Of a stretch of 55,868 nucleotides of DNA, positions 2,371 through 20,300 are shown piece after piece. The notes under the pieces were generated by a model. It did no database searches, was not told the DNA's origin, and saw only the letters and a program-made list of their open reading frames with translations. Location of the stretch: the IMG/VR virus record IMGVR_UViG_3300009081_000016, positions 1 to 55,868 of that record. The stretch is one strand, 5' to 3'. Positions within the stretch are counted from its first letter, which is position 1, and each line of letters begins with the position of its first letter. The stretch comes from a virus. Lineage: Duplodnaviria; Caudoviricetes. Both the position numbers and the translations under genes were made by a program.

Positions 2371-2557
2371 CGTTCTCTCCTCGTTTTTCTTTTGAGATGA
2401 CGCGATTGAATTCGGCCCAACGTGGAACGTAGAAATTGGTTCCTCCAAACAGTTCGATGAAGCGTTTTGTATTGTCCTTCCCAAAAGCTTCATAGTATAG
2501 AAATATGAGGGTGTCGGAGAACTCTTCCTTAATTACCTCTTCCCATTTCGTTGGCAA
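2351..2557 (-). CDS. Mor/C-family transcription activator-like small protein
   Basis: EAFGKDNTKRFIELFGGTNFYVP resembles the Mor FGG..IYIP motif; lacks an obvious full C-terminal HTH. Confidence 0.55.
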   Translation of the reverse strand: MPTKWEEVIKEEFSDTLIFLYYEAFGKDNTKRFIELFGGTNFYVPRWAEFNRVISKEKRGENDVETDL

Positions 2558-3227
2558 GTTCGATCCTCAGTTTTACGAGAACGTACTGATAGAGATTTAT
2601 AGCTTCGTCCCGTGTTTTGTTTCTAAAGAACGTCCTACGCAGGATTCTTATGACTTCCTTGCGGGTGCTCCCCACAAGTACAAATGTAGAAACCCAACGA
2701 CACAGAGCAGGATTCATTTTCCAAGAAATCTGAACAACGTTGTTGGCCACAAAGTCTTCGGTGAAATAAGGATTGAAAAACGGATCAGGCGTAATCTCGA
2801 AGGCTTCATTATCCTCTACGAGTCGTTGGTGGTGATATCGAGGAAACCCAATACGAAGTGCTTTCCAATAACCCAACATACGCAACCAAGGAACTATACG
2901 CCCACGGAACGGTTGGAATTTCATCAACTGACCTTCCAAAAAATACAGCAGAAGGTCATGAAGAACATCCTCAAAAGCATCCTCGATACCCATTTCCTGA
3001 ACTGCAAGAGCAACCATGTTCCGGATCGCCCGAGATATCCCTTGGACCAAAACCCCCGTAGATACCCCCGTTCGTTGGTAGCGGATTACCTCCTCGTACA
3101 GCCACTCCTCAAATTCGGCAGGTTCAAGCGTTTCAGGAACTGGGAGGTGTTTCCTCCGCAAACGCAGCATCTTCCTCGTTGGAAACGCTTGTTCGTCTTT
3201 GTTGTTTCCTCGGAGATTACGAGGCAT
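2529..3227 (-). CDS. Sigma70 region 2-like protein (start uncertain)
   Basis: FEDVLHDLLLYFLEG.LMKFQPFRGRIVPWL resembles the sigma region 2 ED..Q...KFDP.RG pattern. Confidence 0.5.
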   Translation of the reverse strand: MPRNLRGNNKDEQAFPTRKMLRLRRKHLPVPETLEPAEFEEWLYEEVIRYQRTGVSTGVLVQGISRAIRNMVALAVQEMGIEDAFEDVLHDLLLYFLEGQLMKFQPFRGRIVPWLRMLGYWKALRIGFPRYHHQRLVEDNEAFEITPDPFFNPYFTEDFVANNVVQISWKMNPALCRWVSTFVLVGSTRKEVIRILRRTFFRNKTRDEAINLYQYVLVKLRIELANEMGRGN

Positions 3228-3280
3228 TCTGTTTTCCTTCTGCAGCGACGACAGAACATGGTTCTGTATTTAGTGTTCAT
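3086..3280 (-). CDS. Small zinc-ribbon protein (DUF5679-like)
   Basis: MFCRRCRRKTE...TKTNKRFQRGRCCVCG two-CxxC pattern; overlaps the 5' end of 2529..3227. Confidence 0.55.
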   Translation of the reverse strand: MNTKYRTMFCRRCRRKTECLVISEETTKTNKRFQRGRCCVCGGNTSQFLKRLNLPNLRSGCTRR

Positions 3281-3282
3281 AC

Positions 3283-3495
3283 TTATTTGGTGGGCTTGAA
3301 GAACTTTTCAATCAACGAAAGGAAAGAAACATTCGATGCCATTCTTTTCATAGCACGAACCTTAACCGCTGCTGCTCGAATGTCCTGCTTCACCAGATAA
3401 AGACGGTGATTCTGGCGTCTCTCGATGTTCTCCTCCCCCCGCTTCTTCGAGAGACGGTTGTGCCGTCGGCGTTGTTCCGGAGACTGTTTCTTCAT
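3283..3495 (-). CDS. Small basic hypothetical protein
   Basis: TTAGGAG before ATG; Arg/Lys-rich 70 aa. Confidence 0.55.
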   Translation of the reverse strand: MKKQSPEQRRRHNRLSKKRGEENIERRQNHRLYLVKQDIRAAAVKVRAMKRMASNVSFLSLIEKFFKPTK

Positions 3496-3817
3496 TCTTC
3501 TCTCCTAAGGATTTGTGGATTCTGCTAACCATACCCAAACACACAGCCCGATATTCGACAGCTAACGTAGCCATCCTTTTAAGGTCTTCGAGGTTATTTC
3601 GGGCCTCCCCTATAACTCCCCCTTCCATCAATTGTGGTGTCCGCTGAGGAGTTGGAGGGTTTAGGGCGATCTCGATTTCTGACAGGAAACGCACGAAGGG
3701 AATCTCAGAAAAGGTTTTTCCTGTTGCGACGAGGAGTCCCTGTATCAAAGTAAACTCCTCGTCGGTTAGACGTCGGCCAATGGGGCGAGGGTGAAAGGGG
3801 GTAATTATCTTAGTCAT
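3362..3817 (-). CDS. Hypothetical protein
   Basis: GGAG before ATG 3817; coupled to the radical SAM gene. Confidence 0.55.
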   Translation of the reverse strand: MTKIITPFHPRPIGRRLTDEEFTLIQGLLVATGKTFSEIPFVRFLSEIEIALNPPTPQRTPQLMEGGVIGEARNNLEDLKRMATLAVEYRAVCLGMVSRIHKSLGEKNEETVSGTTPTAQPSLEEAGGGEHRETPESPSLSGEAGHSSSSG

Positions 3818-4730
3818 GAGTTTCTCCAAACGGATTGCGAACTAAGCCAACATACGCTCCTCCGGAGTAAGAGCACGCGGCGCAGGGGGAAATCTTAGAT
3901 CGTTCTTTCCGGTACAGAGTTTTCAAGATCGATAGATGGGTTTTCGAATACCAAATTTCCCGGAGACTGTACTCTTCCTCTGTTCCCAGAACGTTCTGTT
4001 CGCGCCAGTCCATACAGCAGATAAGGAATTTACCGGAATAGGTAATGGTGCATTCACGAAAAGGCCGAGTACACATCTTAGCCAACGGCGTAGTTGGTTG
4101 GGGATGACCCAATTCCCGGAGAACAATATTAGATACGTTTCCGGCGTAATTGTGAATTGTACGGGAGCGTCCTGCCTTTACCTTCAAAATGTCAGGAACC
4201 AAATTCAGAACCCGAAGCTTTTCGCCTTTTGGGTATCTCCTATAGGCACTGAATTCCCGGAAGTCGGAAATGGTTATGGTATTCAGTGGGTGGGAGAAGG
4301 AAAGAAGTTCCACCATTCGGTTGTAGGTGTTCCCGTAGCAATCGATGTTCAGAATGTTTATCCCCGATTCGATGATCTGAGTTATGAACGCAGGTTGGGA
4401 ACGAATGGTATCCCCGTTGGTAAACAGGGACATCTGAACAAGGGGGAGAACCTCCCGGAAAGTCTTAATCGCATCCAATAAATGAGGATGCATAAGCGGC
4501 TCCCCTCGCATGGCGAACTCTATTCGTCCTCGTTCATTCAGAACCCGAATCTGATGGGCCATTCGATAAGCCAATTCGAGACTCATGTTCCATTGGGGGG
4601 TAGAAGCAGGTTCGTATGCGGAGGGACAAAATCGGCAACCCCGATCACACCCTCGATGTAGTTCAATCTTGAACGTCGTTGGCCGCGCAATGAGGTTTTC
4701 ATACCGACGTGAAATGGATGACGGTGGCAA
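3810..4730 (-). CDS. Radical SAM protein with C-terminal SPASM/twitch domain
   Basis: CDRGCRFC (CxxxCxxC), RGEPLMHP, FTNG; C-terminal CTRPF...ICCMD...PCAAC; TTG start with AGGAG. Confidence 0.9.
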   Translation of the reverse strand: MPPSSISRRYENLIARPTTFKIELHRGCDRGCRFCPSAYEPASTPQWNMSLELAYRMAHQIRVLNERGRIEFAMRGEPLMHPHLLDAIKTFREVLPLVQMSLFTNGDTIRSQPAFITQIIESGINILNIDCYGNTYNRMVELLSFSHPLNTITISDFREFSAYRRYPKGEKLRVLNLVPDILKVKAGRSRTIHNYAGNVSNIVLRELGHPQPTTPLAKMCTRPFRECTITYSGKFLICCMDWREQNVLGTEEEYSLREIWYSKTHLSILKTLYRKERSKISPCAACSYSGGAYVGLVRNPFGETHD

Positions 4731-4736
4731 ATTCTC

Positions 4737-5177
4737 CTACCTTTCGTCGTTGGGAGACTGAACATCCTCACCGCTATATCCGTTGTCTATGGGTTCGTGT
4801 TTTGGATCTTCTGCCCCTTTGGTGGCTTTATCCTCTGCGCATTTTGCGGTGTGGGTGGTGTAGGAACCGTCGTCATATCCTACCATAACAAAAATCTCCA
4901 CATCCATCTTCGTTTTCAGGTAAGATATGCAGACGTCCCATATCCCATCTACCGGAAGTAGGAGAGGTTCATCCATACTGCGTGACACCGTACGTCCCAC
5001 GACCCGGTCGTCCACAACTACTTCGATTAGGACAATCTGCGGGACAGAGGTCGGGTCACGCGGATTCAGGTCTGCCTTCAATGGAACGGTTAGTTTATCA
5101 GAAAAGTTCGACGGATCACTCAGCTGTCGGAACACTTCATTCGGATCCGTTAGGTGTCTCACCATTGTGGTCTTCAT
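4737..5177 (-). CDS. Hypothetical protein
   Basis: ORF fills the gap in the operon; start uncertain. Confidence 0.55.
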   Translation of the reverse strand: MKTTMVRHLTDPNEVFRQLSDPSNFSDKLTVPLKADLNPRDPTSVPQIVLIEVVVDDRVVGRTVSRSMDEPLLLPVDGIWDVCISYLKTKMDVEIFVMVGYDDGSYTTHTAKCAEDKATKGAEDPKHEPIDNGYSGEDVQSPNDER

Positions 5178-5622
5178 TGTTTGGGCCTTTCGTTTCGTTT
5201 GATTCTCGGATTTGTATTCTACCGCTACGAACTCCAAATAGATTGTCGAAGGGGGAAGGAAATGTATTTTCCCAGGGGGAAGGTGGGATCTTCGTTATGT
5301 AGTTGCACCAGAAAACGTTATCCGTGCGTAGGTGGTTAAGAAAGTCCGTTGCAGGTTGCCGATCCAAAATTTCTTTGTAGGTATACCCCTTTAGGAAGGG
5401 GCATTTCGGATCTTTACACTGGAAAAAGTATTGCCCGTTTCGGTAGTTGTGGTTTCGAGTAGGAAAGTAGGTCGGCAATTGCGTTAGGCCCTTCTTTCCG
5501 CATTCCGGACACCGTAACGTCCCTGTGCCAATCAAGGCTCCCTGTAAGCGTTCCCTTTCCTTCTTTGCCAGCATGGGGTGGGTAAAAAAATCAATAAGAG
5601 CAGACAAAATAGAGCGCTTCAT
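5137..5622 (-). CDS. Zinc-ribbon protein
   Basis: CPECG...FFQCKDPKC C4 ribbon. Confidence 0.55.
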   Translation of the reverse strand: MKRSILSALIDFFTHPMLAKKERERLQGALIGTGTLRCPECGKKGLTQLPTYFPTRNHNYRNGQYFFQCKDPKCPFLKGYTYKEILDRQPATDFLNHLRTDNVFWCNYITKIPPSPWENTFPSPFDNLFGVRSGRIQIRESNETKGPNNEDHNGETPNGSE

Positions 5623-5626
5623 AATG

Positions 5627-6565
5627 CTACTCCAACCGCAATTTAGGTTCCTTAGGAACTTCTCCTGCTTTTATTAGGGCAGGATAAAGTGACAACAAGG
5701 GAGTGTATTTGGAGGAATAGGGTGTAGATACCAAGGGAGAATACCGAGCAAACAAATTTACGAAAGCGGCCTCCGAACGTTCCCGATACCCAGTAGAGCC
5801 CAATGAACTAAGCTTTTCTCCGATGACAGGCCACTCTACGTAGCACCCGCTATTACACAACAACTCCAACCCTCGAAGTTGCGCGCGCAAGCACCAGTCT
5901 ACATCCTGTATAGGTTTTCTGTTTCTCAAGAAGGGACCGATCTCCCGAAAAAGACTGTTATTGAGTATGAAGAAATTAGATAAGAGAACTGTCCTTCGAA
6001 TATACCGACGCCAGTCGTCAAGAGGATTGTATCCCTTCTCCATTAACTGAGATACTTCTAACGAAGTCTGAGTTCCGGTTATTTTGCATATTGTTCGAAA
6101 GAACTTGTGTCGCTGTACAAACTTGATACCGGCAACATGATCATTCTTGTCCATCAGGTGCAACATGAATAACAAATGTTCATAAAGCGGAGGGTTCATT
6201 TGAAGAGCGCCATCCCGATCCCGCATTCGAATATCATCGTCTGCGTGAAGCGTATATTTAAATCCAAACTTGTCCGAAATCCAAGCGGCGATGTTTCGGG
6301 CAGCAGATATCCCTATCGCCTTCTCGTAGTCTACATACGCAAAGATATTGAGATTTCTGCTCTCATCAAATAGATCCCCCTGTCCAACAAGACAAACGGG
6401 AAGTGTGGGCATCGTACGACTGCAGTCACGCAAAAAGCCTTCGATCCTGCGTGGCCGATTATAGCAAATAACTCCAATCATGCAGGACTGATCGGTTCTT
6501 AGCCGTTCGTTTATAAGAACTCTGCGAGGAGAGATGCCTTCGGACAAAGAAGTTGGAATTTTCAT
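5627..6565 (-). CDS. GT-A fold glycosyltransferase (GT2; possibly TAGT/JGT-like DNA glycosyltransferase)
   Basis: IGVICYNRP, GISAARN, LHADDDI (DxD), IQDVDWCLR; located among DNA metabolism genes. Confidence 0.75.
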   Translation of the reverse strand: MKIPTSLSEGISPRRVLINERLRTDQSCMIGVICYNRPRRIEGFLRDCSRTMPTLPVCLVGQGDLFDESRNLNIFAYVDYEKAIGISAARNIAAWISDKFGFKYTLHADDDIRMRDRDGALQMNPPLYEHLLFMLHLMDKNDHVAGIKFVQRHKFFRTICKITGTQTSLEVSQLMEKGYNPLDDWRRYIRRTVLLSNFFILNNSLFREIGPFLRNRKPIQDVDWCLRAQLRGLELLCNSGCYVEWPVIGEKLSSLGSTGYRERSEAAFVNLFARYSPLVSTPYSSKYTPLLSLYPALIKAGEVPKEPKLRLE

Positions 6566-6996
6566 TTCTGTTGCTCTATAAATCTTTTGGCCATCGAAAT
6601 AAATTGCCTAAAGTCTTCGGATGTTGGGGGACTCCAAATCTCCAACTCCACCCACTCGTATTCCTTACCGGGAGCCTTTATCTTGATCTGCTGAGGAACG
6701 GGGACACTAACGTATTTAGGTTTGTCCCCCGCGATTATTCCGCTTTCAACCAGCGCATCGTTGATCACCTTAACGTAGGAACCGTATACGTTATCAATGT
6801 CTAACTGATTTCTACGATAAAGCGTATACCGCAAAATGGCAAAGGAAAATAGCGGAGGTCGTCCAACGCGTATTCTTCGGCGAAGAAAGCCTTCAATCTT
6901 CCTTCGTGCTGACAATTTCAGACCAAAATGACCGCCGATTAGACGATTCAGTGGGGGCAGATCTTCCTGAATGATTATCTTCACGTAACGAAACAT
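6562..6996 (-). CDS. rusA: RusA-like Holliday junction resolvase
   Basis: LPPLN; RNQLDIDNV...KVINDALVESGIIAGD acidic motif. Confidence 0.75.
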   Translation of the reverse strand: MFRYVKIIIQEDLPPLNRLIGGHFGLKLSARRKIEGFLRRRIRVGRPPLFSFAILRYTLYRRNQLDIDNVYGSYVKVINDALVESGIIAGDKPKYVSVPVPQQIKIKAPGKEYEWVELEIWSPPTSEDFRQFISMAKRFIEQQK

Positions 6997-7390
6997 TAAC
7001 CGTTTCCCGTTCTATTAGTTTCAGCCCATCGACAAGAAGACCATCCCGAACTAAAGATTGAATGATCGTTCTATTCGGAGTTACGGACAAGATCTCGGGT
7101 ATGTCCTTCTCTTGAGCAAACTGGATCAGCGAAGTAAGATCGTACTCCCAAGAAGGAGTTGTCCGAATGGACACCGTTCCTCGAGTGGTTTTTACCGAGC
7201 GGCGGTCATCCTCTCGAAGGAGGGTTTGCAAAGACTCCCGTAGATAAGCCAGTTGCCATTCTACCTTTCGGGTTTCCCGAGAAATGAATTCTCGTGTTTC
7301 CCGAGAATACTGAACCAACTCCGCCTTCCGAACGTTGATCTGACGAATCTCATCGAGGATGTCGTCTACGGTGGACAGACTTATGGCCAT
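6893..7390 (-). CDS. Gam/Gp157-like coiled-coil DNA end-binding protein
   Basis: Coiled coil then RSVKTTRGTVSIRTT and PNRTIIQ...VDGLKLIERETV; start reassigned to ATG 7390. Confidence 0.6.
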   Translation of the reverse strand: MAISLSTVDDILDEIRQINVRKAELVQYSRETREFISRETRKVEWQLAYLRESLQTLLREDDRRSVKTTRGTVSIRTTPSWEYDLTSLIQFAQEKDIPEILSVTPNRTIIQSLVRDGLLVDGLKLIERETVNVSLREDNHSGRSAPTESSNRRSFWSEIVSTKED

Positions 7391-7595
7391 GGAATGCCTT
7401 TCTATTCCGAAATAATAAACGTATCTCCGCTCTCTTAAGCGAACGAATTGGAATGGGCCCAAATGTAGTTCCCATATCGTTACTCAGAAATACCAACTCC
7501 CGTTCCGGGGGTCTTGGAGGTGGGACAATAGCAACTATGGTGCACAGAGAATTGGCGTATACAACAAGGTCCCCTCTTTTAAAGTGGATTGGCAT
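7350..7595 (-). CDS. Small hypothetical protein (SH3/KOW-like start)
   Basis: FKRGDLVVY; coupled to neighbours. Confidence 0.5.
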   Translation of the reverse strand: MPIHFKRGDLVVYANSLCTIVAIVPPPRPPERELVFLSNDMGTTFGPIPIRSLKRAEIRLLFRNRKAFHGHKSVHRRRHPR

Positions 7596-8496
7596 CTTCC
7601 AACCCCCGAAAAGCTGAAACCCAAAACTTAAAGCGAGTCAGCATGGAAACAAACCTTCGTTCAATGAAATATTGACGAACCCAGTTCCAATCTATTTCTG
7701 GTTTGGAGTAATGGTGAAGAACGCTATCCAAGTCATCCGTATAGGGGAATAACGAAAGATCCGTTAGCATTCGAGCCATATTGCACACCGAGAGATTTGA
7801 ACGTACGATTGGTTCGTGATTAGCCAGATCGTTTATGTTATCATAGCGATTGGCCCAACGAGCAGCCGTTTTGGGGCCAACTCTAAATATCCCGGGAACG
7901 TCATCCCCCGAATCTCCCTTGAGAGACATGAACAGGGGTAGACGATCCTGCCGAACCCCAGCCAATTTCTTACTGTCGGCCGCAAACTTCCTGTAGTTGT
8001 CTAACGTAACCAAAGTATTGGTGTGTGTCAAAAGAACCTGAACGTTCTTACTCAGTAACTGGAGCCAATCGTGATCCACTGTGACCAAAACGAAATTGGA
8101 CTTCTCTTTCAGGGGAAATCGATTTACAATATAATATGCCAGATCGTCCGCCTCCATACCAACCCAACGAAGTTGGTATATTGGCATGCGTCTGAGGATC
8201 TCTTCGCACTCCCCAATCTGACGATACCGCTCCTGCTTCCGTAGCCTGTCGGCCTCGTCCTTGGGTTTTCTTCTACTCTTGTAACCAGAAAAGAGCCTCT
8301 TTCGGTACAACGTCTTAGCGGGAGAATCCCAGCAGACGAATACATGGGTAGGATCCATGGTCTCCACAGCCAGCTGTAGCAACTCTAAGGTGCCATAGAT
8401 ACCACTCACTCTCCGTCCGCTGGGATCCGTTAAATCAAGGACCATGTCCGCACGGTAGAGAAGAGGATTGCCGTCTACTACCATAATACGGTTCAT
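7579..8496 (-). CDS. 5'-3' exonuclease / flap endonuclease
   Basis: VVDGNPLLYR, WD, YKSRR, EADD, DHDWLQL, GDSGDDVPGIFRVGPKTA. Confidence 0.95.
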   Translation of the reverse strand: MNRIMVVDGNPLLYRADMVLDLTDPSGRRVSGIYGTLELLQLAVETMDPTHVFVCWDSPAKTLYRKRLFSGYKSRRKPKDEADRLRKQERYRQIGECEEILRRMPIYQLRWVGMEADDLAYYIVNRFPLKEKSNFVLVTVDHDWLQLLSKNVQVLLTHTNTLVTLDNYRKFAADSKKLAGVRQDRLPLFMSLKGDSGDDVPGIFRVGPKTAARWANRYDNINDLANHEPIVRSNLSVCNMARMLTDLSLFPYTDDLDSVLHHYSKPEIDWNWVRQYFIERRFVSMLTRFKFWVSAFRGLEDANPL

Positions 8497-8502
8497 TGAC
8501 TG

Positions 8503-9258
8503 TTATTCCTCAACCCGTTCTTTTCGGCGTTTGCCCTTTTCATTTTTCTCCCGCTTCCGGAGTAAATCCAAATCGGTGGCTTCGAGCAATTCGGCGAGTT
8601 CCTCGTAGGTTGGGGGCTTAACCACCTCCATAAGATCTACCCGCTGGCTGAGAAGTTCTTCGATTTCGTCTTCATCCCCCAACGAGGTTTGCTTCGGGGA
8701 AACTCTCGGGAAGTATTCTGATTCCATACCCGTGCCTTCCTTCTCGATAGTTACCCAACGACCTGTCTCAGGGTCTGTAAAGTCCCCAAATTCCGGATCG
8801 AGAAAGCACTTAACCAACTCCGTATGGACGGTTGAACCATAGGGCAGAACAACCACTCCCGTTCCCTCCACCAATGCGTTAGCAAAGTAGCGGGACTTGG
8901 AACGGAGACGCTTAGCAACGTGCTGATCGGAGTCGGAATCGGACTTGTATAGCTCCCGAACCTTTTCGCAAATGGGACAACGGTCCCCTGAAGTTAAACG
9001 GGGGCATGCGATGGTCGATTGTTCGGGACCAACCTTGTAATGGAATCCCGATTCGAAGTAAAAATCCCCGAACGGTTCCATGGAGGGAAGAATCCGAACG
9101 CGAGTCTTGCCTTCCGGAAACTTGAAAAAGGAAGTCTTCCCCCCTCTTTTTTTGCTCCGGTTCAGCGATTCTCGCATACGATCTTCCCGCTTCTTCTTAG
9201 CATCCGCAGTCGAAATGGTTCCAGAACCACCGGATCTATTCCGGGTCTTAATGGGCAT
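8503..9258 (-). CDS. Single-stranded DNA-binding protein (T4 gp32-like)
   Basis: RVRILP, FHY, CP...DRCPICE, RYFAN, GDFTDPETGR. Confidence 0.85.
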   Translation of the reverse strand: MPIKTRNRSGGSGTISTADAKKKREDRMRESLNRSKKRGGKTSFFKFPEGKTRVRILPSMEPFGDFYFESGFHYKVGPEQSTIACPRLTSGDRCPICEKVRELYKSDSDSDQHVAKRLRSKSRYFANALVEGTGVVVLPYGSTVHTELVKCFLDPEFGDFTDPETGRWVTIEKEGTGMESEYFPRVSPKQTSLGDEDEIEELLSQRVDLMEVVKPPTYEELAELLEATDLDLLRKREKNEKGKRRKERVEE

Positions 9259-9270
9259 CCGATCTCCCTT

Positions 9271-11694
9271 CTACAGTTTTTCCTGTGTTCCCCAAGAACT
9301 TCCAACGGCAAACTCGACCGGAGTCTTGACCTTTAGCCACGGTAGTTTGGGGTTTTCCATGATCTTTTTAGCGATTCCTAACGCCCGATTTTCTTCCCCT
9401 GGGTAGAGATCCATGAGAATCATATCGTGTATCAGATCGATAACCAATGATTGGAGTCCCTTTTCCCGGAAAGCCTCGGTTATACGCATAGAAGACAGGT
9501 CTGTGAGCATGCTGGCTGCGTTTTGTATTGGAGAATTAACAGCCTCCCGCTCCATAGATGATCTGTCTCGATCGTCTGAATGGGCGTAATTGGGAAACCA
9601 ACGTCGCGAACCGAAGGGGGACTCAACATAACCGTTCTTGATGATCTGTCGAACCACATGATCTCTAAACTCTCCTACTTCGGGATAAAGTTCGTTATAC
9701 CTTCTTAGAAAATCCCTCCAATACTTTATGGTCTTTCCGTGTTGTTCGTGCAATCCAATTTCGCTTTCCCCATACAGCACACCAAAATTAACTCGCTTGG
9801 CGTCACTGCGGATATTCTCCGCTACTGGTTCATCCGCAGGTATGGAGAAAACCTCCCGAGCAACGGCCTCGTGAATGTCACCCCCTGCCGAAAACACGGA
9901 CAACATATGTCGGCAGTTCGCTAATACCGCGAATATCCGTAACTCGATCTGACTATAGTCTCCCGAAGCAACCTTTCCATCCGGCCAACGCGAAATGAAT
10001 AGGGACTTAATATTGTACTCAGACCCCGAAGTGGACTTACGAGGGATGTTCTGTAGATTTGGTCCAGAGGACGACAGTCTTCCGGTCTCGGTATCGATGT
10101 TGAAATTGCTGTGGGCTAATCCATCTGACTTAACCCACTTTCGAACTGCGGTACCTGTATAGGTGGTAAGCAGCTTAACCAAAGTTGAACGTTCAACCAA
10201 ACCACGAGCAACAGGGTGATCGAATCGGGCGATTATGTCCTTCTCTGTTGAGGGCATCCCTGTTTCGGGGGTTACGTACGTTGTGTCCAATCCGCAATGA
10301 ACGTATAGAATCTCTCTTTTAACATTGGGAGATGCCCAAGCGCTCTTCTCCCCCAACTTCGTAGTTACCATTTTAGCTTTGGGGTGTAATCGTAAGAACG
10401 CCTCAACAGCCTTGGTCTTGCTAAGCTTTAAATCTATCGCCTGAATGGAGGCAAACAACTTGTTGGCCAACGCATCAGATGCCTGAAGATCAATCTTTGC
10501 ACCGTTCGATCTAACTGTCCTAAGATGGCCATTCAGAGGATGAAGAATTGTATGGTAGTAATCGGTCAACCCCTCTTTCTCCAAACGTGGAACGAACACC
10601 CGCTTCTTTAGAGTAAAAGTACAGACAGCGTCTGTTCCGTTGTAGACCGCCAGTTGTCTCCGGGAGGCGGAGGTCATAGATACCGATTTCTTCGGCGACT
10701 TAGACCTAACGCTCTCCTTGAAAACGGTCTTGTATCCAGCGTACTCAGGAAGATGAACAGCCACCATATAGGCCAAATCGTGCTTGGCGGATGCCGGATC
10801 GAGTACGTAGCTAAGAAGTTTTGTGTCCCAGACAAAATTGTTTACGGTAATTCCGACAACAACTTGCAGGTATAGAACATCGAAGTTTCCGTTCTGAGCA
10901 ATTATTTCACAGGGAAGGTCAAATACCTTTCGCCACACAGCAATATCGGATTCGGAATAAAAGCTAACCAACCCTATATCGTCTTCAGCACAGACCCCGA
11001 TGCACAGTATCTTGGCGTCCGTTGCCCATGGATCCTTGCCCGTAGTTTCAAGATCGAACGCAAACTCTTTCTTATCCCGTAGGTACCGTAATATTTCTTC
11101 CGGAGAAACGATATGAACTTCGGGAACCTTCATTTCGGCGGTGGTGCTTTCGTCGAACAGAACACTCATATCCTTTATGAACGTGTCCGTAAGTCGAGGA
11201 TCATAACCAATCGCCGCAGGATGGTACATCGGGAAGAAGGTTCTTCCTCCCTGAACGATCTTCCTTCCTCGCGCTTGTTTAATGGACTTGAGTCCAAGCA
11301 ATGCCTTGAGAGCGGTACCACCCAATGGAACTATTACTTTGGGGTCGGTTTCTTTTATCTCCTCCCCCAACCAACGCATACACGCTTTTATGTTCTTCGA
11401 ATCAGGAGTCGCATTTCCGGGAGGTCTGCAACGTACGGTGTTAGTGAAACGAACTGTTAGCTCCAGATCGTTGGCTCGTTCTACAAGACTCCGAAGACGT
11501 TTTCCGGAAGCACCCACAAAGGGTACGCCTTCGTCATCTTCCGTTGCTCCAGGGGCCTCCCCAACAAAGAGAATATCTGCATCGGCGGGACCATCGGGTC
11601 GAATGCAATTGCTACGACAATCGTGACACAGACTGCATCGATCGCATAGAAAAGACGCGGAATCCGACGGGACCCACCTATTTCCTTTTATCAT
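9271..11694 (-). CDS. polA: Family A DNA polymerase with N-terminal family-4 uracil-DNA glycosylase domain
   Basis: UDG: CDRC, FVGEAPG, FVGASG, NTVRCRPP, YHPAA. Exonuclease: FDLETTG, QNGNFD, YNGTD. Polymerase: DYSQIELR, AKRVNFGVLYG, IHD. Confidence 0.96.
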   Translation of the reverse strand: MIKGNRWVPSDSASFLCDRCSLCHDCRSNCIRPDGPADADILFVGEAPGATEDDEGVPFVGASGKRLRSLVERANDLELTVRFTNTVRCRPPGNATPDSKNIKACMRWLGEEIKETDPKVIVPLGGTALKALLGLKSIKQARGRKIVQGGRTFFPMYHPAAIGYDPRLTDTFIKDMSVLFDESTTAEMKVPEVHIVSPEEILRYLRDKKEFAFDLETTGKDPWATDAKILCIGVCAEDDIGLVSFYSESDIAVWRKVFDLPCEIIAQNGNFDVLYLQVVVGITVNNFVWDTKLLSYVLDPASAKHDLAYMVAVHLPEYAGYKTVFKESVRSKSPKKSVSMTSASRRQLAVYNGTDAVCTFTLKKRVFVPRLEKEGLTDYYHTILHPLNGHLRTVRSNGAKIDLQASDALANKLFASIQAIDLKLSKTKAVEAFLRLHPKAKMVTTKLGEKSAWASPNVKREILYVHCGLDTTYVTPETGMPSTEKDIIARFDHPVARGLVERSTLVKLLTTYTGTAVRKWVKSDGLAHSNFNIDTETGRLSSSGPNLQNIPRKSTSGSEYNIKSLFISRWPDGKVASGDYSQIELRIFAVLANCRHMLSVFSAGGDIHEAVAREVFSIPADEPVAENIRSDAKRVNFGVLYGESEIGLHEQHGKTIKYWRDFLRRYNELYPEVGEFRDHVVRQIIKNGYVESPFGSRRWFPNYAHSDDRDRSSMEREAVNSPIQNAASMLTDLSSMRITEAFREKGLQSLVIDLIHDMILMDLYPGEENRALGIAKKIMENPKLPWLKVKTPVEFAVGSSWGTQEKL

Positions 11695-12037
11695 CTATTC
11701 TAATCTCCCAGATTTCAAATGCAAGACTTCCTTGTGAATCGAGTTTGTTGGTCCAAAAGAACAGATTCAGCTTGGTAAGAGGATCTAATGACCCACAAAG
11801 GGCGTAAGCGTTCAAATCATTAGAGACCATAACGTCTCCGCCGTTGGCAACCAACATGAGTTCTGGTTCGGAATCCCCCGAAACAATCTGAAAGAAGTCA
11901 AATACAAGCGTTCGAATTTCCTTTCCGATAGTGAGTTCGATCCGCTTGCCGTTATTCTTCTGATTCCATTCGAGAAGCGGGAAGAAATGCACTCGAGCCG
12001 GATACCCCGAATTGTTTATTTCGGCGGGCAAGTTCAT
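11678..12037 (-). CDS. Hypothetical protein
   Basis: GGAGG before ATG 12037; overlaps both neighbours. Confidence 0.55.
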   Translation of the reverse strand: MNLPAEINNSGYPARVHFFPLLEWNQKNNGKRIELTIGKEIRTLVFDFFQIVSGDSEPELMLVANGGDVMVSNDLNAYALCGSLDPLTKLNLFFWTNKLDSQGSLAFEIWEIRIDDKRK

Positions 12038-13109
12038 GTGCTTTATCCTCCAATCGAATAAATAAACGTGCGTGCGCATTTGCTCCCAACTGTTCTGAGC
12101 CCAACCCATCCGCCGGGATCAGTTCCTCCTGAGGTCGATAGACGTAGCGCCGCTTGATCCGTCTATCCACCTGGCCCTCCAGCCCTGTGCAGTACTTGGA
12201 GAATTCGCATAGAGAATGTTCTATCGCTCGCACGTCCAAAGTAAGACTAAAGGGGGTTCCGGAAAAGAAACGTTGGAGGAGACACTCCTGGTTACGACAC
12301 AGATAGTAGATAAAATCTTCCGGGGTATCCAGAACTTGGGCAGCCTTATCAGTCAGATGCAAATTAATCATGGCGGAACCCAAAGGAGAGGTGGGCGGAG
12401 CAGGGGAAAATATCCTACGTAGGCCTCTCTTGGCCCCTGGCCCAGCGTTACACCAACTATCCTGTAAATAATCGGGAGTGAAACACCCAAACGGTGTGTA
12501 GGTCAAATCCGTAGCGATCTCGTACCCTATAAAACCACCTATCCCGGGCAGTTTACAGAGCGCCTCCCAGTAGTCTCGTAAATTGGGCTTGTCCAAAAGT
12601 ATATCATACAACCAAGGAAGAGAATTCGAAATTGTGCGAAGGCGTTTTACGGTCTCTCGAATCTTATTTGATCCTGGCCCTCCCGCCCGTATAATATAGG
12701 CTGAACCAAAAACAGGATCCGTATCCGCTATTTCTCGGAGACCCTCTTCGAAGCGTTTCCACCCAGCGGCACCCCAATTTTTGTTTACATAAGGATATCC
12801 CCATGGTAAATTCATGAGGGTCGTAGGACGGTTTATTAGGCGATACGCAATTATATTGAATACCAACTGGGCGTCGTAGGTTGGAGAGTACCTAATGATC
12901 TTTTCAAACAGCCAAACAGTTCCGCGATCGAGGTCTCGGAATACGTTGGTGAATCGATAGTCCCGAAGAATTGGATCATCCGTAAGAACGGTTTTGTGTT
13001 CGAGAAAACGCCGAACCCACATCTGATACCGTTCTTGAATCCAATACCAGAACAATCTCATGGCCACTGGGTTGATGGCCACAACGGTTTTCTTATTGGG
13101 AGTCGGCAT
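11952..13109 (-). CDS. aGPT-Pplase1 family (alpha-glutamyl/putrescinyl-thymine pathway, amino acid:DNA transferase-like)
   Basis: ER...RR...TDDPILRDYRFTNVFRDLDRG, HhH LPGIGGFIGYEIATDL, NAGPGAKRGL, IEHSLCEFSKY. Confidence 0.88.
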   Translation of the reverse strand: MPTPNKKTVVAINPVAMRLFWYWIQERYQMWVRRFLEHKTVLTDDPILRDYRFTNVFRDLDRGTVWLFEKIIRYSPTYDAQLVFNIIAYRLINRPTTLMNLPWGYPYVNKNWGAAGWKRFEEGLREIADTDPVFGSAYIIRAGGPGSNKIRETVKRLRTISNSLPWLYDILLDKPNLRDYWEALCKLPGIGGFIGYEIATDLTYTPFGCFTPDYLQDSWCNAGPGAKRGLRRIFSPAPPTSPLGSAMINLHLTDKAAQVLDTPEDFIYYLCRNQECLLQRFFSGTPFSLTLDVRAIEHSLCEFSKYCTGLEGQVDRRIKRRYVYRPQEELIPADGLGSEQLGANAHARLFIRLEDKAHELARRNKQFGVSGSSAFLPASRMESEE

Positions 13110-13596
13110 CTGATCTATCCCCTAATATGGAAATAACAGAAGTCAGTTCCCGGAGCAGATACGGGAGCAGCGCATGCGGATCGATGGGGGTGGGTTCTGG
13201 AACGATCCGCTCGTGGCGGTATTTTCTTACAGCCAGTTGTATGGCTTCGGCCAGACGATCTTCCACCAAACCGTTATCCGACTCGTTACCGGATCCACGT
13301 GAGGATGCTACGGCCCCGATCAAGGCGTATCCTGCGAGGTCAGTCCAAGGGTCTTCCTGGAGTGCAGATGGTGCGTGGGCAATACGCATGATCTTATCGA
13401 ATATTCTACCTAGTATAAAGGAGTCCCGCATTCGTTCGGGAGGAATTCCTTGGGGCCACAACAGAGAAAAGAATCGACCCACCACAAACGCACTACTTCC
13501 ATAGGAAGCATTTTTGTGGCCCAACAATTTTCCCAGAGAATCCCCCCGACTTAGAAATTCTTCGGATAGGGTCTTGAAGTTTTTAGGCTGGGCCAT
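13093..13596 (-). CDS. Nucleotide-modification-associated domain protein (Nmad1/DUF1599-like)
   Basis: KNASYGSS...RIFDKIMRI...EDPWTDLAGYALI; GGAG before ATG 13596. Confidence 0.7.
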   Translation of the reverse strand: MAQPKNFKTLSEEFLSRGDSLGKLLGHKNASYGSSAFVVGRFFSLLWPQGIPPERMRDSFILGRIFDKIMRIAHAPSALQEDPWTDLAGYALIGAVASSRGSGNESDNGLVEDRLAEAIQLAVRKYRHERIVPEPTPIDPHALLPYLLRELTSVISILGDRSDADSQ

Positions 13597-14320
13597 CGAA
13601 TAGACTCCCATTAAATATCTGAAGACGAATTTCCTGATACAAAGTTGTTTTAATTTCCATGGGTATTCTCCCTTTTTCATCATGAATAAAGGGAGCCAAG
13701 ATAAAACCACAAAGGGTTTCAAAGTTCGATCGGCCATTCCCGTCGGGTTTATCATTCCTGCAAAAAATACAGGGATTTAAACTGTCCTCGGGCAAACGCC
13801 GTGAGGCCAATTCTTCACACAAACTATTTGTGGTGATCTTCAAAACGTCAGCCATTTCCGGATCGGGGTTCCCTTTCTTCAGTTCCTGAGTGGCGTAAAG
13901 GTGCAGTTCGAGACGATCGAAGAACTTGACAACTCGAAACTCCAAACTGCTTAGACCCAAATCAGGGTGCGCCTCATTTACCCTATCCATGGAGGTGACT
14001 TCCGCCGAATACAGTTCTTCCCGAAATTTCTCGGAAGCAAAATTTTTGAAGGGATAGGGAATATCCCCTGAAAAGGCTTCAGGCCAATCGTGCTTAAGAA
14101 TACCACGAGATACTCTTACCTGATCCACACAAAAGCAGGGCCAAAACATTTCGTGCAGGAGCAGCGCAAATAACGTGTGCTCCGCTACGCTACGCTTCTC
14201 GTAGGTAAACATTAGACCGCAGTGGTTGATTCGCGATAACCGTTCATAGCTATTATATTTACGATGGCAAGGAATCGCGGCCTCTGTAAGTTGATACAGT
14301 CTATCATTGCTCTGGAACAT
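13583..14320 (-). CDS. HD-domain 5'-deoxynucleotidase (YfbR-like)
   Basis: SVAEHT, LKHDWPEAFSGDIPYPFK, VKFFDRLE; AAGGAG before ATG 14320. Confidence 0.88.
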   Translation of the reverse strand: MFQSNDRLYQLTEAAIPCHRKYNSYERLSRINHCGLMFTYEKRSVAEHTLFALLLHEMFWPCFCVDQVRVSRGILKHDWPEAFSGDIPYPFKNFASEKFREELYSAEVTSMDRVNEAHPDLGLSSLEFRVVKFFDRLELHLYATQELKKGNPDPEMADVLKITTNSLCEELASRRLPEDSLNPCIFCRNDKPDGNGRSNFETLCGFILAPFIHDEKGRIPMEIKTTLYQEIRLQIFNGSLFDGPA

Positions 14321-15425
14321 CGGATACACTCCTTGTGTTAGTCCAATCAACGTAGTGAGTCTGATTAGTCTTTATAACGGGAGATCGAATTCCGGCTAAT
14401 AGTTCTTGGACAGCCGCATTCTCCCCCCCTCTCCGCAATAGTTGGTGTATCTGAAATACCGAAACCCAGTCGTATAATTGCGCTGGAAATATTGACTCAA
14501 TGTCAACGGGGGTAAGTGGGTTGGGGCAATCGGGAACGCCCCCATCTCCCTGGGCCATCGCGCTGCCTACATTGTGCAAGCGCTCTACGTCCGATAAGCA
14601 AAGGGGTGAGGTAGACCCTCCGAATTCTCGAAGCGCAGCCGGGAACCAAAGTCCGCCAACGGGCATCCCGTTTTTCTCAAGAAGGTTTTTGGCCCGTTTC
14701 CAATGCCGTTCATAAAGATGTAAACAGCTAACGAAATGCGTATACTTGTGTGGGCGAACTTTCATTGTTCGAGTGGGGTCTTCCCGCATTATCATATCGG
14801 ATAGAACCTCCATCAACAATGACCACGTAAACAGATTGACGTTGCTGCCCCAAAGAATATCCATGGAACGCTGAAATATTTTCAGCGAGAGGAGAAAGTT
14901 TGGTTGCCCCCCGTTCCATTCGTCTGGTTCAAGAAGGACATGAAGAGCAAGATTGCAGGGAAGATCTTTAGTATGGCCCCGAGCGGTCAGATCGGCGGGA
15001 TGGGCTATCAATATAAATGCCTGGCGAGACAACGGATTATGGGCCAGCAAGTTGGCAACTTCCAGCAGTTGATCCGTCTTCATAATGTCTCCAATTGGGA
15101 ATGCTCTAATACGAGGACCGTATGCTGCCCTCCAAGCCTTACCGTTATCGCTGAAGTCCTCAGCCCGAGGAAGGTATACCTTCAACGAGGATATATAATT
15201 CTCGCCAAAAAGAACCCAACAGGCCTCGAACATGGTGGCCGCGAGACAGTCCCTACGATCCTGCAGATCCAGAACACGGAAGGAAGGTTCAGACAGCTGA
15301 ATAACCACGTCTTCCAATTCGAGAGACGCCTGATCTCGGCGTTCTATCTTCTTTCCTTCCTTGAATAACTTGGTCAGTCCGGCCAATAGAAAATCGCTGT
15401 TACCAACGGCGGTAATTAAATGCAT
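14304..15425 (-). CDS. Thymidylate synthase-family enzyme, probably dUMP hydroxymethylase
   Basis: AYGPR, DQL, SRQA, KDLPCN (catalytic Cys), QRSMDILWGSNVN (Asn at the dUMP-specificity position), LHLYERH; start reassigned to ATG 15425. Confidence 0.85.
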   Translation of the reverse strand: MHLITAVGNSDFLLAGLTKLFKEGKKIERRDQASLELEDVVIQLSEPSFRVLDLQDRRDCLAATMFEACWVLFGENYISSLKVYLPRAEDFSDNGKAWRAAYGPRIRAFPIGDIMKTDQLLEVANLLAHNPLSRQAFILIAHPADLTARGHTKDLPCNLALHVLLEPDEWNGGQPNFLLSLKIFQRSMDILWGSNVNLFTWSLLMEVLSDMIMREDPTRTMKVRPHKYTHFVSCLHLYERHWKRAKNLLEKNGMPVGGLWFPAALREFGGSTSPLCLSDVERLHNVGSAMAQGDGGVPDCPNPLTPVDIESIFPAQLYDWVSVFQIHQLLRRGGENAAVQELLAGIRSPVIKTNQTHYVDWTNTRSVSDVPEQ

Positions 15426-15458
15426 GGAAGAATCCTTTATCGAAATTTTACGGATACT

Positions 15459-15514
15459 AAAAAGACCCCAGGTGGTCGAATCCGGCATTAAGACTCGACC
15501 AACCTGGGGGGGTC
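15459..15514 (-). terminator. Long hairpin followed by U-tract (intrinsic terminator)
   Basis: Minus strand gacccc(ccc)aggttggtcga...tcgaccacctggggtc followed by ttttt. Confidence 0.7.
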
Positions 15515-15680
15515 ATTCGCGGTGGCTCGCCGCGACCTTAGGAGGACTTGACCCTTTAAATTAGGGGAAGGCAGAACGTCAATCTATCCCAGATAAGTGG
15601 CGCCATTCCCTATCCGGTATTCACTAAAAGCAATTACGCTTTCGGTCAATTATGTTCGGACTTCTACCGAAACCTTCCCC
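15459..15680 (-). ncRNA. Candidate structured sRNA carrying an anti-Shine-Dalgarno segment
   Basis: ggggaagg/ccttcccc closing stem (15673-15680 / 15564-15571), internal hairpins, unpaired aagtcctcctaagg (15549-15536), hairpin, terminator; no credible ORF. Confidence 0.5.
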
Positions 15681-15683
15681 GAG

Positions 15684-15778
15684 AACGGGAGGCGGGATTC
15701 GAACCCGCACGCACCATGATCAGTACAGAGGGGAAACGAAGAAAACCCTCTCGCGTCTACCATTTCCGCCACTCCCGT
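15684..15778 (-). tRNA. tRNA-Leu-like (class II) element with aberrant 15-nt anticodon loop; no encoded CCA
   Basis: ACGGGAG-TG-GCGGAAATGGTAGACGC-G-AGAGG[gttttcttcgtttcc]CCTCT-long variable arm-GCGGG TTCGAAT CCCGC-CTCCCGT-T. Confidence 0.8.
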
Positions 15779-15802
15779 TACCTACGCGATGGCCGGAACG
15801 AA

Positions 15803-16711
15803 TTATTCCGGGTCTTCCCAACCCGCCTTCTCGTTGATGGCGGTGATGATGCGGAGACGATTCACCTGACGGGTCTTGGACTCTTTCCATGTCACGCCCA
15901 TCTTCTTGGCGAACTTCTCGAGAGCCTCGTCGTCGGCGAGCTCGTCCTTCAGCATCTTCTTGAACTTCGCCTGGGTGATTTCCTCGTCATCGTCTCCGGA
16001 CTTTTTCTTCGGGGGTTTCTCCTCCGTACCGCCGTTCTCTTCACCCTTGGTTCGGTTCCGGATGTCCTTCTCGTCTACGTCCTTCAGGGCGACGGCGTCT
16101 TCCTCCTCTTCCCCCGCGATCAGAACGTGGAGTTTCTTCTTGATCTTGACGATCTTGGCTTTCACCCAGTTGTCGTCTTCATCCCGCACCCAGACCTTGT
16201 CGTCTTCCTCGAGATCATCGAGGTCGTCGATCTTCGTGCCCGGAGCGGCGGACTTCTTTTCCTTGGGGGGTTTGTCTTCCCCTTCATCCGCGTTCTTGCC
16301 CTTCTTGGGCTTGGCTTCCACGCCGACCGTAAGGGTCTCGGAGTCTTCATCCCAACCGAGAGCGCACGTACCGTTGTCCGCCAGCTGTTCTGAGATCTCT
16401 CCGATGGCCAACGCAACGGCGGCTACGAGGGCGGAGTCGAGTTCTTTTTTCTTTGTCATGGATTTGGTTTCCTGCGTAATGGTTTGCTTTTGGGGCTGAA
16501 CGAGAAAGATTGGAGAGTTTTTCTTGAGACCGCTCCCAACTTCAACTCCCTCGGATTCAATGTACTTCAAAAGTTGGGGGGAGAAGCCACGGGTGCTTCC
16601 ATAGTTACCCAGTGTGTAGTTGATCACCTGTTTGCGTGCCCGATCATCGGGACACAGTTCATCGAGTTCACTCAGGTTCAACTCGTCCATAAGTTTGCTT
16701 AGGTCATACAC
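15803..16711 (-). CDS. Highly charged K/E/D-rich protein with Tudor/SH3-like and C-terminal HeH-like segments; second in-frame start at 16459
   Basis: LEEDDKVWVRDEDDNWVKAKIVKI; C-terminal ALEKFAKKMGV...RLRIITAI; TTAGGAGG before GTG 16711. Confidence 0.7.
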   Translation of the reverse strand: MYDLSKLMDELNLSELDELCPDDRARKQVINYTLGNYGSTRGFSPQLLKYIESEGVEVGSGLKKNSPIFLVQPQKQTITQETKSMTKKKELDSALVAAVALAIGEISEQLADNGTCALGWDEDSETLTVGVEAKPKKGKNADEGEDKPPKEKKSAAPGTKIDDLDDLEEDDKVWVRDEDDNWVKAKIVKIKKKLHVLIAGEEEEDAVALKDVDEKDIRNRTKGEENGGTEEKPPKKKSGDDDEEITQAKFKKMLKDELADDEALEKFAKKMGVTWKESKTRQVNRLRIITAINEKAGWEDPE

Positions 16712-17284: not shown

Positions 17285-17970
17285 TTTCCCCCCCCAAACC
17301 TTTTTCGTCTAATCGTAAGAATCTTTTCGGGAGAGGACTTCTTTGTAGAACGCGCCACTCTATTCCCCCGATCAAAGAATTTGGAGTAGAGGCGTTCAAG
17401 ACGTAGCGTATTATCATCGTCCGGAACTACGATTTCTTCCCCTCGCTTAATCGCGCTCCAAAAGGCTTTGGCTTCCTTCCTTTCCTCACTTCGCTTTGCT
17501 CGGCGCTCCTGCCGATCCAAACGTTCCTTCTTGATACGGGCGCAGGTTTCCCAAGCTGCGTCCACTTCGTCCATTGACAGGGTAGGAGCCACGGCGGGAC
17601 AGCGCTGAGCTATGTATTTGGGCTTAGTAATTCCGAACCATTCGGCAGACAGCAGACCTCTCTGATGCTTTAATTCAAGGAAGCCTATAAAGCGGCCATC
17701 CTCCAAAACTTGGTCACTGGAAACAGTCAGCAACTTTTCCGCGTGACCCACCCGTTCGAAGGTGCATATCCATCGGGGAACAGAGGGGTCCTCATCACCC
17801 ACCAAACGTTCCGTAAGTAACCATTTTGTGTGGTGCAACCCAATCGCAACCTTCTCCCACTCCGGACAACGATCCGGTTCAGCCAACTCCAGCGTAACGA
17901 CATCCCCTCGCCTGAGCCAGAGTATTTGTGCTCGAACGAGGAATAGCCCTTTCCTCTCGTACCAATTCAT
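17281..17970 (-). CDS. Hypothetical early protein
   Basis: TTAGGAGG RBS; 229 aa. Confidence 0.75.
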   Translation of the reverse strand: MNWYERKGLFLVRAQILWLRRGDVVTLELAEPDRCPEWEKVAIGLHHTKWLLTERLVGDEDPSVPRWICTFERVGHAEKLLTVSSDQVLEDGRFIGFLELKHQRGLLSAEWFGITKPKYIAQRCPAVAPTLSMDEVDAAWETCARIKKERLDRQERRAKRSEERKEAKAFWSAIKRGEEIVVPDDDNTLRLERLYSKFFDRGNRVARSTKKSSPEKILTIRRKRFGGGK

Positions 17971-17990
17971 AATGTCCTCCTAAGAAATAA

Positions 17991-20276: not shown

Positions 20277-20300
20277 AAGTCCTCCTAAGGATTGTTAAAC

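Follow-up and report, generated by a model that had tools for sequence, protein, structure and literature searches.

The window analysed here is the complete virus record IMGVR_UViG_3300009081_000016, a 55,868 bp sequence with direct terminal repeats that contains exactly one tRNA-like gene: a 95-nucleotide (nt) tRNA-Leu-like element encoded on the minus strand, which is also the strand of all neighbouring genes. The element is preceded by a gene for a protein of 302 amino acids (aa) rich in lysine, glutamate and aspartate and followed, after a structured RNA region, by a gene encoding a thymidylate-synthase-like protein. Element and structured region together form a non-coding stretch of about 320 nt that parts a block of small genes of unknown function from the nucleotide-modification and replication block of the phage, of which the thymidylate-synthase-like gene is the first. 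An earlier note on this DNA (hereafter the original prediction), which gave no strand, had described the element as tRNA-shaped but non-decoding. The features of the locus are collected in Table 1. The element is a phage tRNA-like or aberrant tRNA gene, a kind already known, in which a tRNA body with every stem intact is combined with an anticodon loop that hardly serves decoding.

Table 1. Coordinates of the tRNA-Leu-like element, its parts and the surrounding features
Feature	Position	Strand	Description	Basis
tRNA-Leu-like element	15778->15684	minus	95 nt	Rfam RF00005, ARAGORN, stems read from sequence
Acceptor stem	15778-15772 / 15691-15685	minus	ACGGGAG/CUCCCGU, 7/7 Watson-Crick pairs	
D arm	15769-15753	minus	GCG-GAAAUGGUAGA-CGC; 3-bp stem, 11-nt loop	
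Anticodon arm	15751-15727	minus	AGAGGG-UUUUCUUCGUUUC-CCCUCU; 25 nt, 6-bp stem (15751-15746 / 15732-15727)	
Anticodon loop	15745->15733	minus	UUUUCUUCGUUUC; 13 nt, pyrimidines 12/13	
Variable arm	15726-15711	minus	GUACU-GAUCAU-GGUGC; 5 pairs including 2 G-U	
T arm	15708-15692	minus	GCGGG-UUCGAAU-CCCGC	
Discriminator	15684	minus	U, followed by CUC, not CCA	
Upstream gene	15803..16711	minus	302 aa, K/E/D-rich; TAA stop at 15805-15803	
Spacer	15779..15802	minus	24 nt, from the TAA stop of the 302-aa gene to the 5' end of the element	
Downstream RNA, domain 1	15564..15680	minus	multi-branched, closed by GGGGAAGG/CCUUCCCC	predicted fold
Downstream RNA, domain 2	15511..15554	minus	contains the anti-Shine-Dalgarno-like UCAAGUCCUCCUAAGG (15551->15536)	predicted fold
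G+C-rich long hairpin	15509-15466	minus	followed by UCUUUUU (15465-15459)	predicted fold
Thymidylate-synthase-like gene	14304..15488	minus	PF00303, E = 1.3e-17; PHROG thymidylate synthase	

All 26 stem pairs of the element are intact (24 Watson-Crick and two G-U pairs, the latter both in the variable arm), and A15779 could pair with U15684 as an eighth acceptor pair. In our own reading, the bases that build the core and elbow of a tRNA are present as well (U8, A14, G18G19, U54-U55-C56, A58 and G53-C61), as is a purine-pyrimidine pair, A15/U48; positions 8-9 are U and G, and the first acceptor pair is A1-U72. The D arm is of Leu type, in that an identical 20-nt string is found in seven type-II tRNAs of our genome collection, three of which ARAGORN calls Leu. 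These observations agree with the original prediction, which had reported a perfect 7-bp acceptor stem extendable to eight by an A-U pair, a Leu-type D arm, a long variable arm, a canonical T loop and a 25-nt anticodon arm without an encoded CCA. Its figure of 15 nt for the anticodon loop is correct only on the assumption of a canonical 5-bp stem; with the 6-bp stem, as in the string that it quoted itself, the loop has 13 nt. The loop does not include a single A, and therefore holds none of the Leu anticodons, nor does it offer a frame with U33 and a purine at position 37. Together with the discriminator U, these features uphold the claim that the element is not a decoder.

The Rfam tRNA model (RF00005) scores the element at 39.5 bits, above its curated cut-off of 29, with E-values of 5.3e-7 (over 451 nt) and 1.6e-8, a better match than chance would give and one that places it among tRNA cloverleaf scaffolds. 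The alignment puts a 14-nt insertion in the anticodon loop, and the default fast gathering pass of Rfam over the whole window does not list the element. ARAGORN, whose use the original prediction had proposed, also finds it, but with a forced and mismatched stem: the default label, 'tRNA-Glu(ttc)', comes with a drawing in which GAGGG is paired with CGUUU (one mismatch and two G-U pairs) and the real 3' strand of the stem is displaced into a giant variable arm. This label is an artefact. Measured against tRNA-Leu, the element agrees in its D arm and long variable arm and departs in its discriminator and in the lack of a Leu anticodon; A73 is an essential discriminator for the bacterial leucyl-tRNA synthetase. 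In a functional decoder, the anticodon loop would have 7 nt, U33 and a purine 37 framing the anticodon, and the loop of the element does not have this form.

When introns are allowed, ARAGORN returns 'tRNA-Lys(ttt)' with a 6-nt 'intron', tcttcg, at 36/37. Taken at face value, this call would make the element a working decoder, either a Lys-UUU tRNA from which a mini-intron is removed or a tRNA whose expanded loop serves frameshifting or quadruplet reading, and a precedent of sorts exists in the phage tRNAs with 'enigmatic introns' reported from Lak megaphages (PMC6784885). The loop left after removal of the 6 nt, however, is UUUUUUC, with a U at position 37, and we reject the mini-intron for giving no credible anticodon loop. 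The phage genes, moreover, read through under the standard code and require no suppressor. No bacterial mechanism for excising a 6-nt insert is known to us, nor any synthetase rule that a Leu-type body with U73 would match, and the expanded anticodon loops known to us have 8-9 nt. All told, a decoding role strikes us as very improbable. Group I introns are hundreds of nt long and bulge-helix-bulge splicing is archaeal or eukaryal; with an excess of just 6 nt, both are excluded, and no Rfam intron family matches in 15500-15950. An intron of either kind would be expected at 37/38, next to the 36/37 position that ARAGORN proposes.

Several other identities were considered and rejected. The element has traits of tRNA-Sec (the possible 8-bp acceptor stem, the 6-bp anticodon stem and the long variable arm), but a 3-bp D stem with an 11-nt loop and the lack of UCA in the anticodon loop rule it out. 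Transfer-messenger RNA (tmRNA) was sought with the ARAGORN tmRNA search and with Rfam, neither of which has a match in the window. A remnant of a phage attachment site (attP) is at odds with the presence of an entire cloverleaf, and no integrase was found among the proteins of the window by Pfam or PHROG. T-box and riboswitch readings were likewise set aside. In the Rfam scan of 15500-15950, the leader RNA ahead of the thymidylate-synthase-like gene matched no family at E <= 10.

The correctness of the sequence was assessed in public sequencing data. Twelve public runs hold part of 15300-16000, and four of them (X1, X4, X5 and X10) were compared through their Logan contigs. A 55,775-nt contig of X1, possibly the source sample, covers the whole 15300-16000 stretch; a contig of X4 (soil, 2024) covers 15640-15825 and one of X5 (freshwater sediment, 2017) covers 15566-15981, in each case with 0 differences and 0 gaps. 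The three runs bear three study codes and carry an identical element, from which we conclude that it is not an assembly error; the original prediction had allowed for an error that, once corrected, would restore a 7-nt loop, and nothing of the kind is seen in these contigs. An artefact of assembly or sequencing that inflates a normal loop has a negligible chance of being the explanation: the probable hypermodified thymidines of this phage can disturb some sequencing chemistries, but no such artefact was found, and the independently built contigs show no other letters. Pieces at 15926-15963 in X4, X5 and X10 have four to five differences and loose ends, and thus belong to other organisms. X10 is a metatranscriptomic library from the study of X4, and its 151-nt contig on 15565-15715, again with 0 differences, runs across the 3' border of the element, 32 nt of it lying within the tRNA-like sequence and 119 nt past it. 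We take it as presence of the locus in an RNA library and as a weak hint of molecules uncut at the 3' border. X10 has no contig on 15300-15564 or on 15716-15923, a lack of cover that carries no evidence.

The region that follows the element is strongly structured. RNAfold assigns the 229 nt of 15683->15455 a free energy of -94.1 kcal/mol, against -70.0 +/- 4.7 kcal/mol for shuffled sequences (z = -5.09; 0/200 shuffles as good). The long hairpin at the end of the predicted fold, together with the U-rich run behind it, is likely an intrinsic terminator; a simple terminator scan did not flag it, its loop and stem exceeding the limits of the scan. The thymidylate-synthase-like gene probably starts at ATG 15425, since its database form (P0001) has 373 aa. 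No sigma-70-like promoter was found on either strand of 15200-16200, and the 302-aa protein upstream belongs to no family by Pfam or PHROG, its ESM Atlas lead being sub-threshold (0.81).

Within the second domain, UCAAGUCCUCCUAAGG resembles the anti-Shine-Dalgarno (anti-SD) end of 16S rRNA. Its region includes a 14-nt perfect complement to the ribosome-binding site (RBS; 20277-20290) of the minus-strand gene starting at 20276, and a 12/14 complement to the RBS (17970-17983) of the minus-strand gene starting at 17970. Searching for 14-mer complements with <=2 mismatches gave three matches, including self, against 0.54 expected, a count that 1/100 shuffles reached. Because much of this reflects the strong SD consensus of the phage, UAGGAGGA, we treat the matches as a lead only; judged from the sequence, the stretch may be a translational regulator or a mere echo of that consensus.

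To place the locus among relatives, we compared the element and its surroundings with several collections. No match to 15600-15860 was obtained by blastn among 50,697 phage records, scans of IMG/VR with each flanking protein and with the DNA polymerase of the phage (PolA) returned no relative, the exact 25-nt pattern of D arm and stem had no match in IMG/VR, and a pattern combining D arm and T arm had none in metagenome contigs. For the thymidylate-synthase-like protein itself, the best non-self relative in a search of 5.8 billion proteins has 38% identity, and its relatives overall reach <=39%. An alignment-based scan yielded 80 IMG/VR loci that carry a thymidylate-synthase-like gene. A tRNA upstream of that gene was found in 0/80 of them, and ARAGORN detected five ordinary tRNAs, distributed over 4/80; the leader RNA had no similarity upstream of the 80 genes by nhmmer or blastn, and it occurs only once in the window. 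None of the five best complete records among these loci has a tRNA, nor does any of them have a counterpart of the portal or of the 302-aa protein of this phage. They are thus not genome-wide kin and share only the module, which makes the lack of the element in them uninformative.

The reading that we prefer, tentatively and as possible rather than probable, is that the element is a non-decoding module derived from tRNA-Leu that acts as a processing or stability handle. We are led to it because the element lies between two gene blocks, has no promoter of its own and stands ahead of a folded, terminator-ended RNA. It sets out from what is observed, namely the anatomy, the layout and the correct sequence of the element and its presence in an RNA library. 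Kept in the element are the stack of acceptor stem and T arm and the elbow of D and T loops, which RNase P, RNase Z and the CCA-adding enzyme recognise; what it has lost, a usable anticodon loop, is read by the ribosome and most synthetases. The module would be transcribed from upstream as part of the non-coding stretch, and RNase P would cut at 15778/15779, leaving an upstream mRNA that ends 24 nt past its stop codon; the same cut would leave the downstream RNA protected by base pairing at its 5' end. Given the bridging X10 contig, the module may remain joined to the downstream RNA rather than be released from it. The original prediction had seen in the element a processing tag that releases a downstream small RNA. 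The layout (the 24-nt gap, the missing promoter and the structured, terminator-ended RNA) would suit such a tag, a non-decoding module within a longer transcript; the X10 contig, which spans the 3' part, does not sit well with release by RNase Z.

A number of points weigh against this handle reading. That same contig speaks against efficient release of the downstream RNA by RNase Z, and as a contig it does not allow ends, strand or level to be read, while RNA libraries can hold DNA. Transcription from upstream, cleavage by RNase P and an effect on stability are steps that we infer. Since the searches brought up no relative of either the phage or the element, neither covariation nor selection can be invoked in its favour. 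The 13-nt pyrimidine loop is superfluous for a processing handle, and the reading leaves it unexplained. As far as sequence comparison goes, the elements on Leu-type scaffolds that we describe below from IMG/VR may or may not be its kin. Finally, the energy model favours a fold other than the cloverleaf by 3 kcal/mol (-38.9 vs -35.9). Real tRNAs often fail the nearest-neighbour cloverleaf test, for which reason we give this last point little weight. In the alternative fold, D-loop nt 12-19 GGAAAUGG (15767-15760) pair with nt 40-47 UCGUUUCC (15739-15732) over eight positions, with predicted pair probabilities of 0.79-0.99; this pairing of D loop and anticodon loop, known from the model, could be chance or a conformational switch.

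Nearly as likely as the handle, though still rather unlikely in itself, is a type-II (Leu-like) tRNA in decay, which has taken up loop insertions and a changed discriminator, has not yet been deleted and has no function. A single copy in an orphan phage, for which no conserved counterpart was found, is what such a relic would look like, and aberrant tRNA-shaped genes are common in phage contigs. The loop without a plausible anticodon frame, U73 in place of the A73 expected for tRNA-Leu and a cloverleaf that the thermodynamic model does not favour all fit the same picture. Decay sits less easily with 26 stem pairs and the bases of the tertiary contacts all intact and only the loop changed. The original prediction had used the intact stems as an argument against random decay, and the argument is a fair one, but it is weak as long as no diverged copy is at hand to show selection. 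By our own reading, the loop cannot be derived from a 7-nt loop by one simple duplication, so some time must have elapsed without damage to any stem. Its composition, with pyrimidines at 12/13 positions, is unlike a random insertion; the locus is represented in an RNA library, and compact phage genomes usually shed dead DNA.

The intact body and the U-rich, single-stranded loop would also suit a decoy, an idea already raised in the original prediction, or an inhibitor of a host factor that targets tRNAs. The factor might be an anticodon nuclease or another defence that cleaves tRNAs, or else an enzyme that binds them. The body would recruit the factor, and the enlarged loop would trap it or serve as a substrate that yields no product. 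Published accounts exist of several tRNA-cutting defences (PMC13056530, PMC12445682, PMC12851939), and two further reports describe phage tRNAs that counter tRNA-targeting defences through changes in the anticodon loop or through tRNA supply (PMC10264068, PMC11555353). Scans of the phage proteins with Pfam and PHROG, on the other hand, found no tRNA-repair or other tRNA-related enzyme. A decoy would moreover have to compete with a very large pool of tRNAs, and we regard this explanation as unlikely.

The loop may alternatively be the functional part, presented on a tRNA scaffold that provides folding, processing and stability, and act as an antisense seed against purine-rich sites or as a binding site for a protein. 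Its non-random composition (pyrimidines 12/13) would be accounted for in this way. The phage sequence, however, shows no enrichment of loop complements, with six matches at <=2 mismatches against 3.3 expected and 9/100 shuffles equal, and only one non-self match lies on the transcribed strand. A further argument in favour comes from a family of elements in IMG/VR, in which a fixed Leu-type scaffold with hypervariable cores looks like a scaffold plus its cargo; kinship with that family, though, is only a possibility, and a functional loop seems to us improbable, somewhat in the manner of the decoy.

These IMG/VR elements were collected with a pattern of a Leu-type D arm and a canonical T arm separated by 42-62 nt, which recovered at least 120 stretches, and 80 of the loci were read (L089-L168). 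The acceptor stem is a perfect 7 bp in 65/80 and the T stem complete (5/5) in 74/80; there are 35 different acceptor stems and 63 distinct central regions, the discriminator is A in 64/80, and CCA is encoded in 8/80. By default, ARAGORN reports a tRNA at the site in 17/80 loci, only four of them with Leu anticodons. Among 20 loci submitted to Rfam, the tRNA model matches the site in 15, at 32.6-48.7 bits and with large insertions in every case, and none of the 20 showed a match to an Rfam ribozyme family. In the largest subfamily, a fixed 25-nt 5' scaffold recurs in at least 123 IMG/VR stretches; the 80 loci read (L210-L289) represent 71 distinct elements. Their cores range in length from 23 to more than 100 nt, and ARAGORN names a tRNA in 8/71, none of them Leu. 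Two or three copies are present in 9/80 of these loci. Within 2 kb there is at least one ARAGORN gene in 52/80 (the element being counted where called) and there are two or more in 25/80, up to 15; the elements are often neighbours of tRNA clusters. Flanks are alike in only two compared pairs (27 loci with 351 possible pairs, flanks <150 nt being skipped), and blastn of one family member against cultured phages returned only generic matches to the T arm. Non-canonical tRNA-shaped genes on Leu scaffolds are thus common in phages, with the scaffold clearly kept.

The element shares with this family the Leu-type D arm, the canonical T arm, a 7-bp acceptor stem, a non-canonical central region, the usual lack of an encoded CCA and, with the largest subfamily, A1-U72. 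It differs from the family scaffold, which has a CCTGACT acceptor strand and A73, in its ACGGGAG/CTCCCGT stem and the T at the discriminator, and it keeps a clean hairpin where the cores of the family often have no anticodon-like hairpin. With only the generic Leu D arm and T loop in common, we do not count it as a member.

Several loci of these collections show peculiarities of their own. Between L110 and L158, a 109-nt upstream flank is 92% identical up to the scaffold while core and downstream sequence are unrelated, as if the element marked a recombination boundary. Five loci (L109, L111, L124, L154 and L161) have a second tRNA-like gene some 190 nt away, 127-128 nt long with a 42-nt insert, that ARAGORN calls 'SeC(tca)' when introns are allowed; the copy of L109, the only one of the five submitted, scores 39.2 bits with the Rfam tRNA model. 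L094 has a partial tmRNA match at 564-672 on the minus strand (31 bits), cut at the end of the locus and adjoining the Leu-scaffold element. In the genome collection, 4/7 hits to the D-arm pattern (L082, L083, L084 and L088) are type-II tRNAs with non-Leu anticodons: Pro CGG, Pro UGG and Gly GCC in metagenome-assembled genomes (MAGs) of Gemmatimonadota, and UUA, which reads the stop UAA, in a MAG of Pseudomonadota. By their sequences, these four may be recoding or mistranslating tRNAs.

A bolder version of the handle reading would see in the whole non-coding stretch of about 320 nt a composite regulatory RNA with the element as its 5' module. This module, a scaffold that cannot be charged but is matured by RNase P, would carry and stabilise the structured RNA, whose anti-SD stretch would pair with the RBSs of middle genes. 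The element would then be one case of a wider, so far undescribed use of tRNA-Leu scaffolds by phages as carriers of non-decoding RNA cargo, as in the IMG/VR family with its fixed scaffold and variable cores. As a whole, this proposal is speculative, and we would be surprised to see all of it hold.

The phage in which the element resides occurs in soil and sediment samples. A tailed phage, it encodes a terminase, a portal, a major head protein and a tape measure (PHROG), and nearly all of its genes lie on the minus strand. Its replication set comprises a DnaB-like helicase, a DnaG-like primase, a gp32-like single-stranded-DNA-binding protein, a 5'-3' exonuclease and a family-A polymerase fused to a uracil-DNA glycosylase domain (PolA-UDG). 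A thymidine-hypermodification kit (227-15488 and 51710-53915) encodes, besides the thymidylate-synthase-like protein and the PolA-UDG fusion, an HD phosphohydrolase, a 5-hydroxymethyldeoxyuridine (5-hmdU) DNA kinase, two radical-SAM/SPASM proteins, a methyltransferase and two glycosyltransferases of family GT2, with a weak match, below the Pfam cut-off, to TET-associated glycosyltransferases; going by these genes, the phage DNA probably contains hypermodified thymidines. An 817-aa protein encoded at 44273-46726 on the minus strand, between the portal and scaffold genes, has a match to Peptidase_C10 (streptopain family; E = 7.4e-42), an unusual domain for a head module to contain.

Codon supply is the usual explanation of phage tRNA genes, and escape from tRNA-cutting defences a more recent one. 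A perfect tRNA body without decoding suggests that the tRNA shape has a third use, serving as a handle in RNA processing or stability or in the recruitment of proteins. The role of tRNA-like stable RNAs of phages has been open since species 1 and 2 of T4, and a single orphan element of an uncultured phage cannot settle it. Taken together with the Leu-scaffold elements of IMG/VR, it is suggestive of a class that standard callers overlook or label wrongly, 'tRNA-Glu' being the example here, and this pattern at the level of a class is a more promising lead than the element alone. Should the element merely be a decaying tRNA, such tRNA calls in phage annotations would need checking.

In the literature that we searched, which does not amount to proof of absence, neither a phage tRNA whose loop is this large nor the family on Leu scaffolds was found described, and the closest comparisons are with known tRNAs and tRNA-like RNAs. 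Relative to bacterial and phage tRNA-Leu, the element has the same 7-bp acceptor stem, a Leu D arm identical over 20 nt, the long variable arm and the canonical T arm, and differs in its 13-nt loop, 6-bp anticodon stem, discriminator U and A1-U72. The rnaC and rnaD RNAs of T4 (species 1 and 2; 139 and 119 nt, of unknown function and annotated beside the tRNA cluster) are likewise phage-encoded, tRNA-like and not decoders, and the T arm of rnaC is GGTTCGAATCC. They have no sequence similarity to the element and no full cloverleaf with a Leu D arm, and they sit in a tRNA array, whereas the present phage has no other tRNA beside the element.

A YrlA or Y RNA identity was also rejected. In YrlA, a long Ro-binding stem replaces the anticodon stem, and the gene adjoins rsr (Ro60). 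This bacterial Y RNA mimics the tRNA elbow and is reported from bacteria and some phages (PMC4201824). The present phage differs in that no Ro60/TROVE match was found among 59 proteins searched with Pfam and 55 with PHROGs. Lak megaphages resemble it in having oversized tRNA genes that standard bacterial tRNA callers cannot classify (PMC6784885), and differ in that the insert of the element has 6 nt and leaves no credible anticodon loop when removed.

Closer to the handle reading are tRNA-shaped modules that serve as processing signals. Such signals are known in the MALAT1-associated small cytoplasmic RNA (mascRNA) and the tRNA-microRNA units of murine gammaherpesvirus 68 (MHV68). The t-elements of plant mitochondria are described in the same terms (PMC1920247). 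All of these are non-decoding, tRNA-shaped modules that lie in a longer transcript beside another RNA, as the element would in the handle reading; they are eukaryal or organellar and are cut by tRNA-processing enzymes, whereas the element is known from its sequence and the X10 contig bridges its 3' junction. Among phages, P1 C4 and P4 CI, with which the original prediction had compared the element, are non-coding RNAs whose maturation by RNase P depends on a tRNA-like fold. These two mimic only the stack of acceptor stem and T arm, whereas the element is a full cloverleaf upstream of a candidate RNA.

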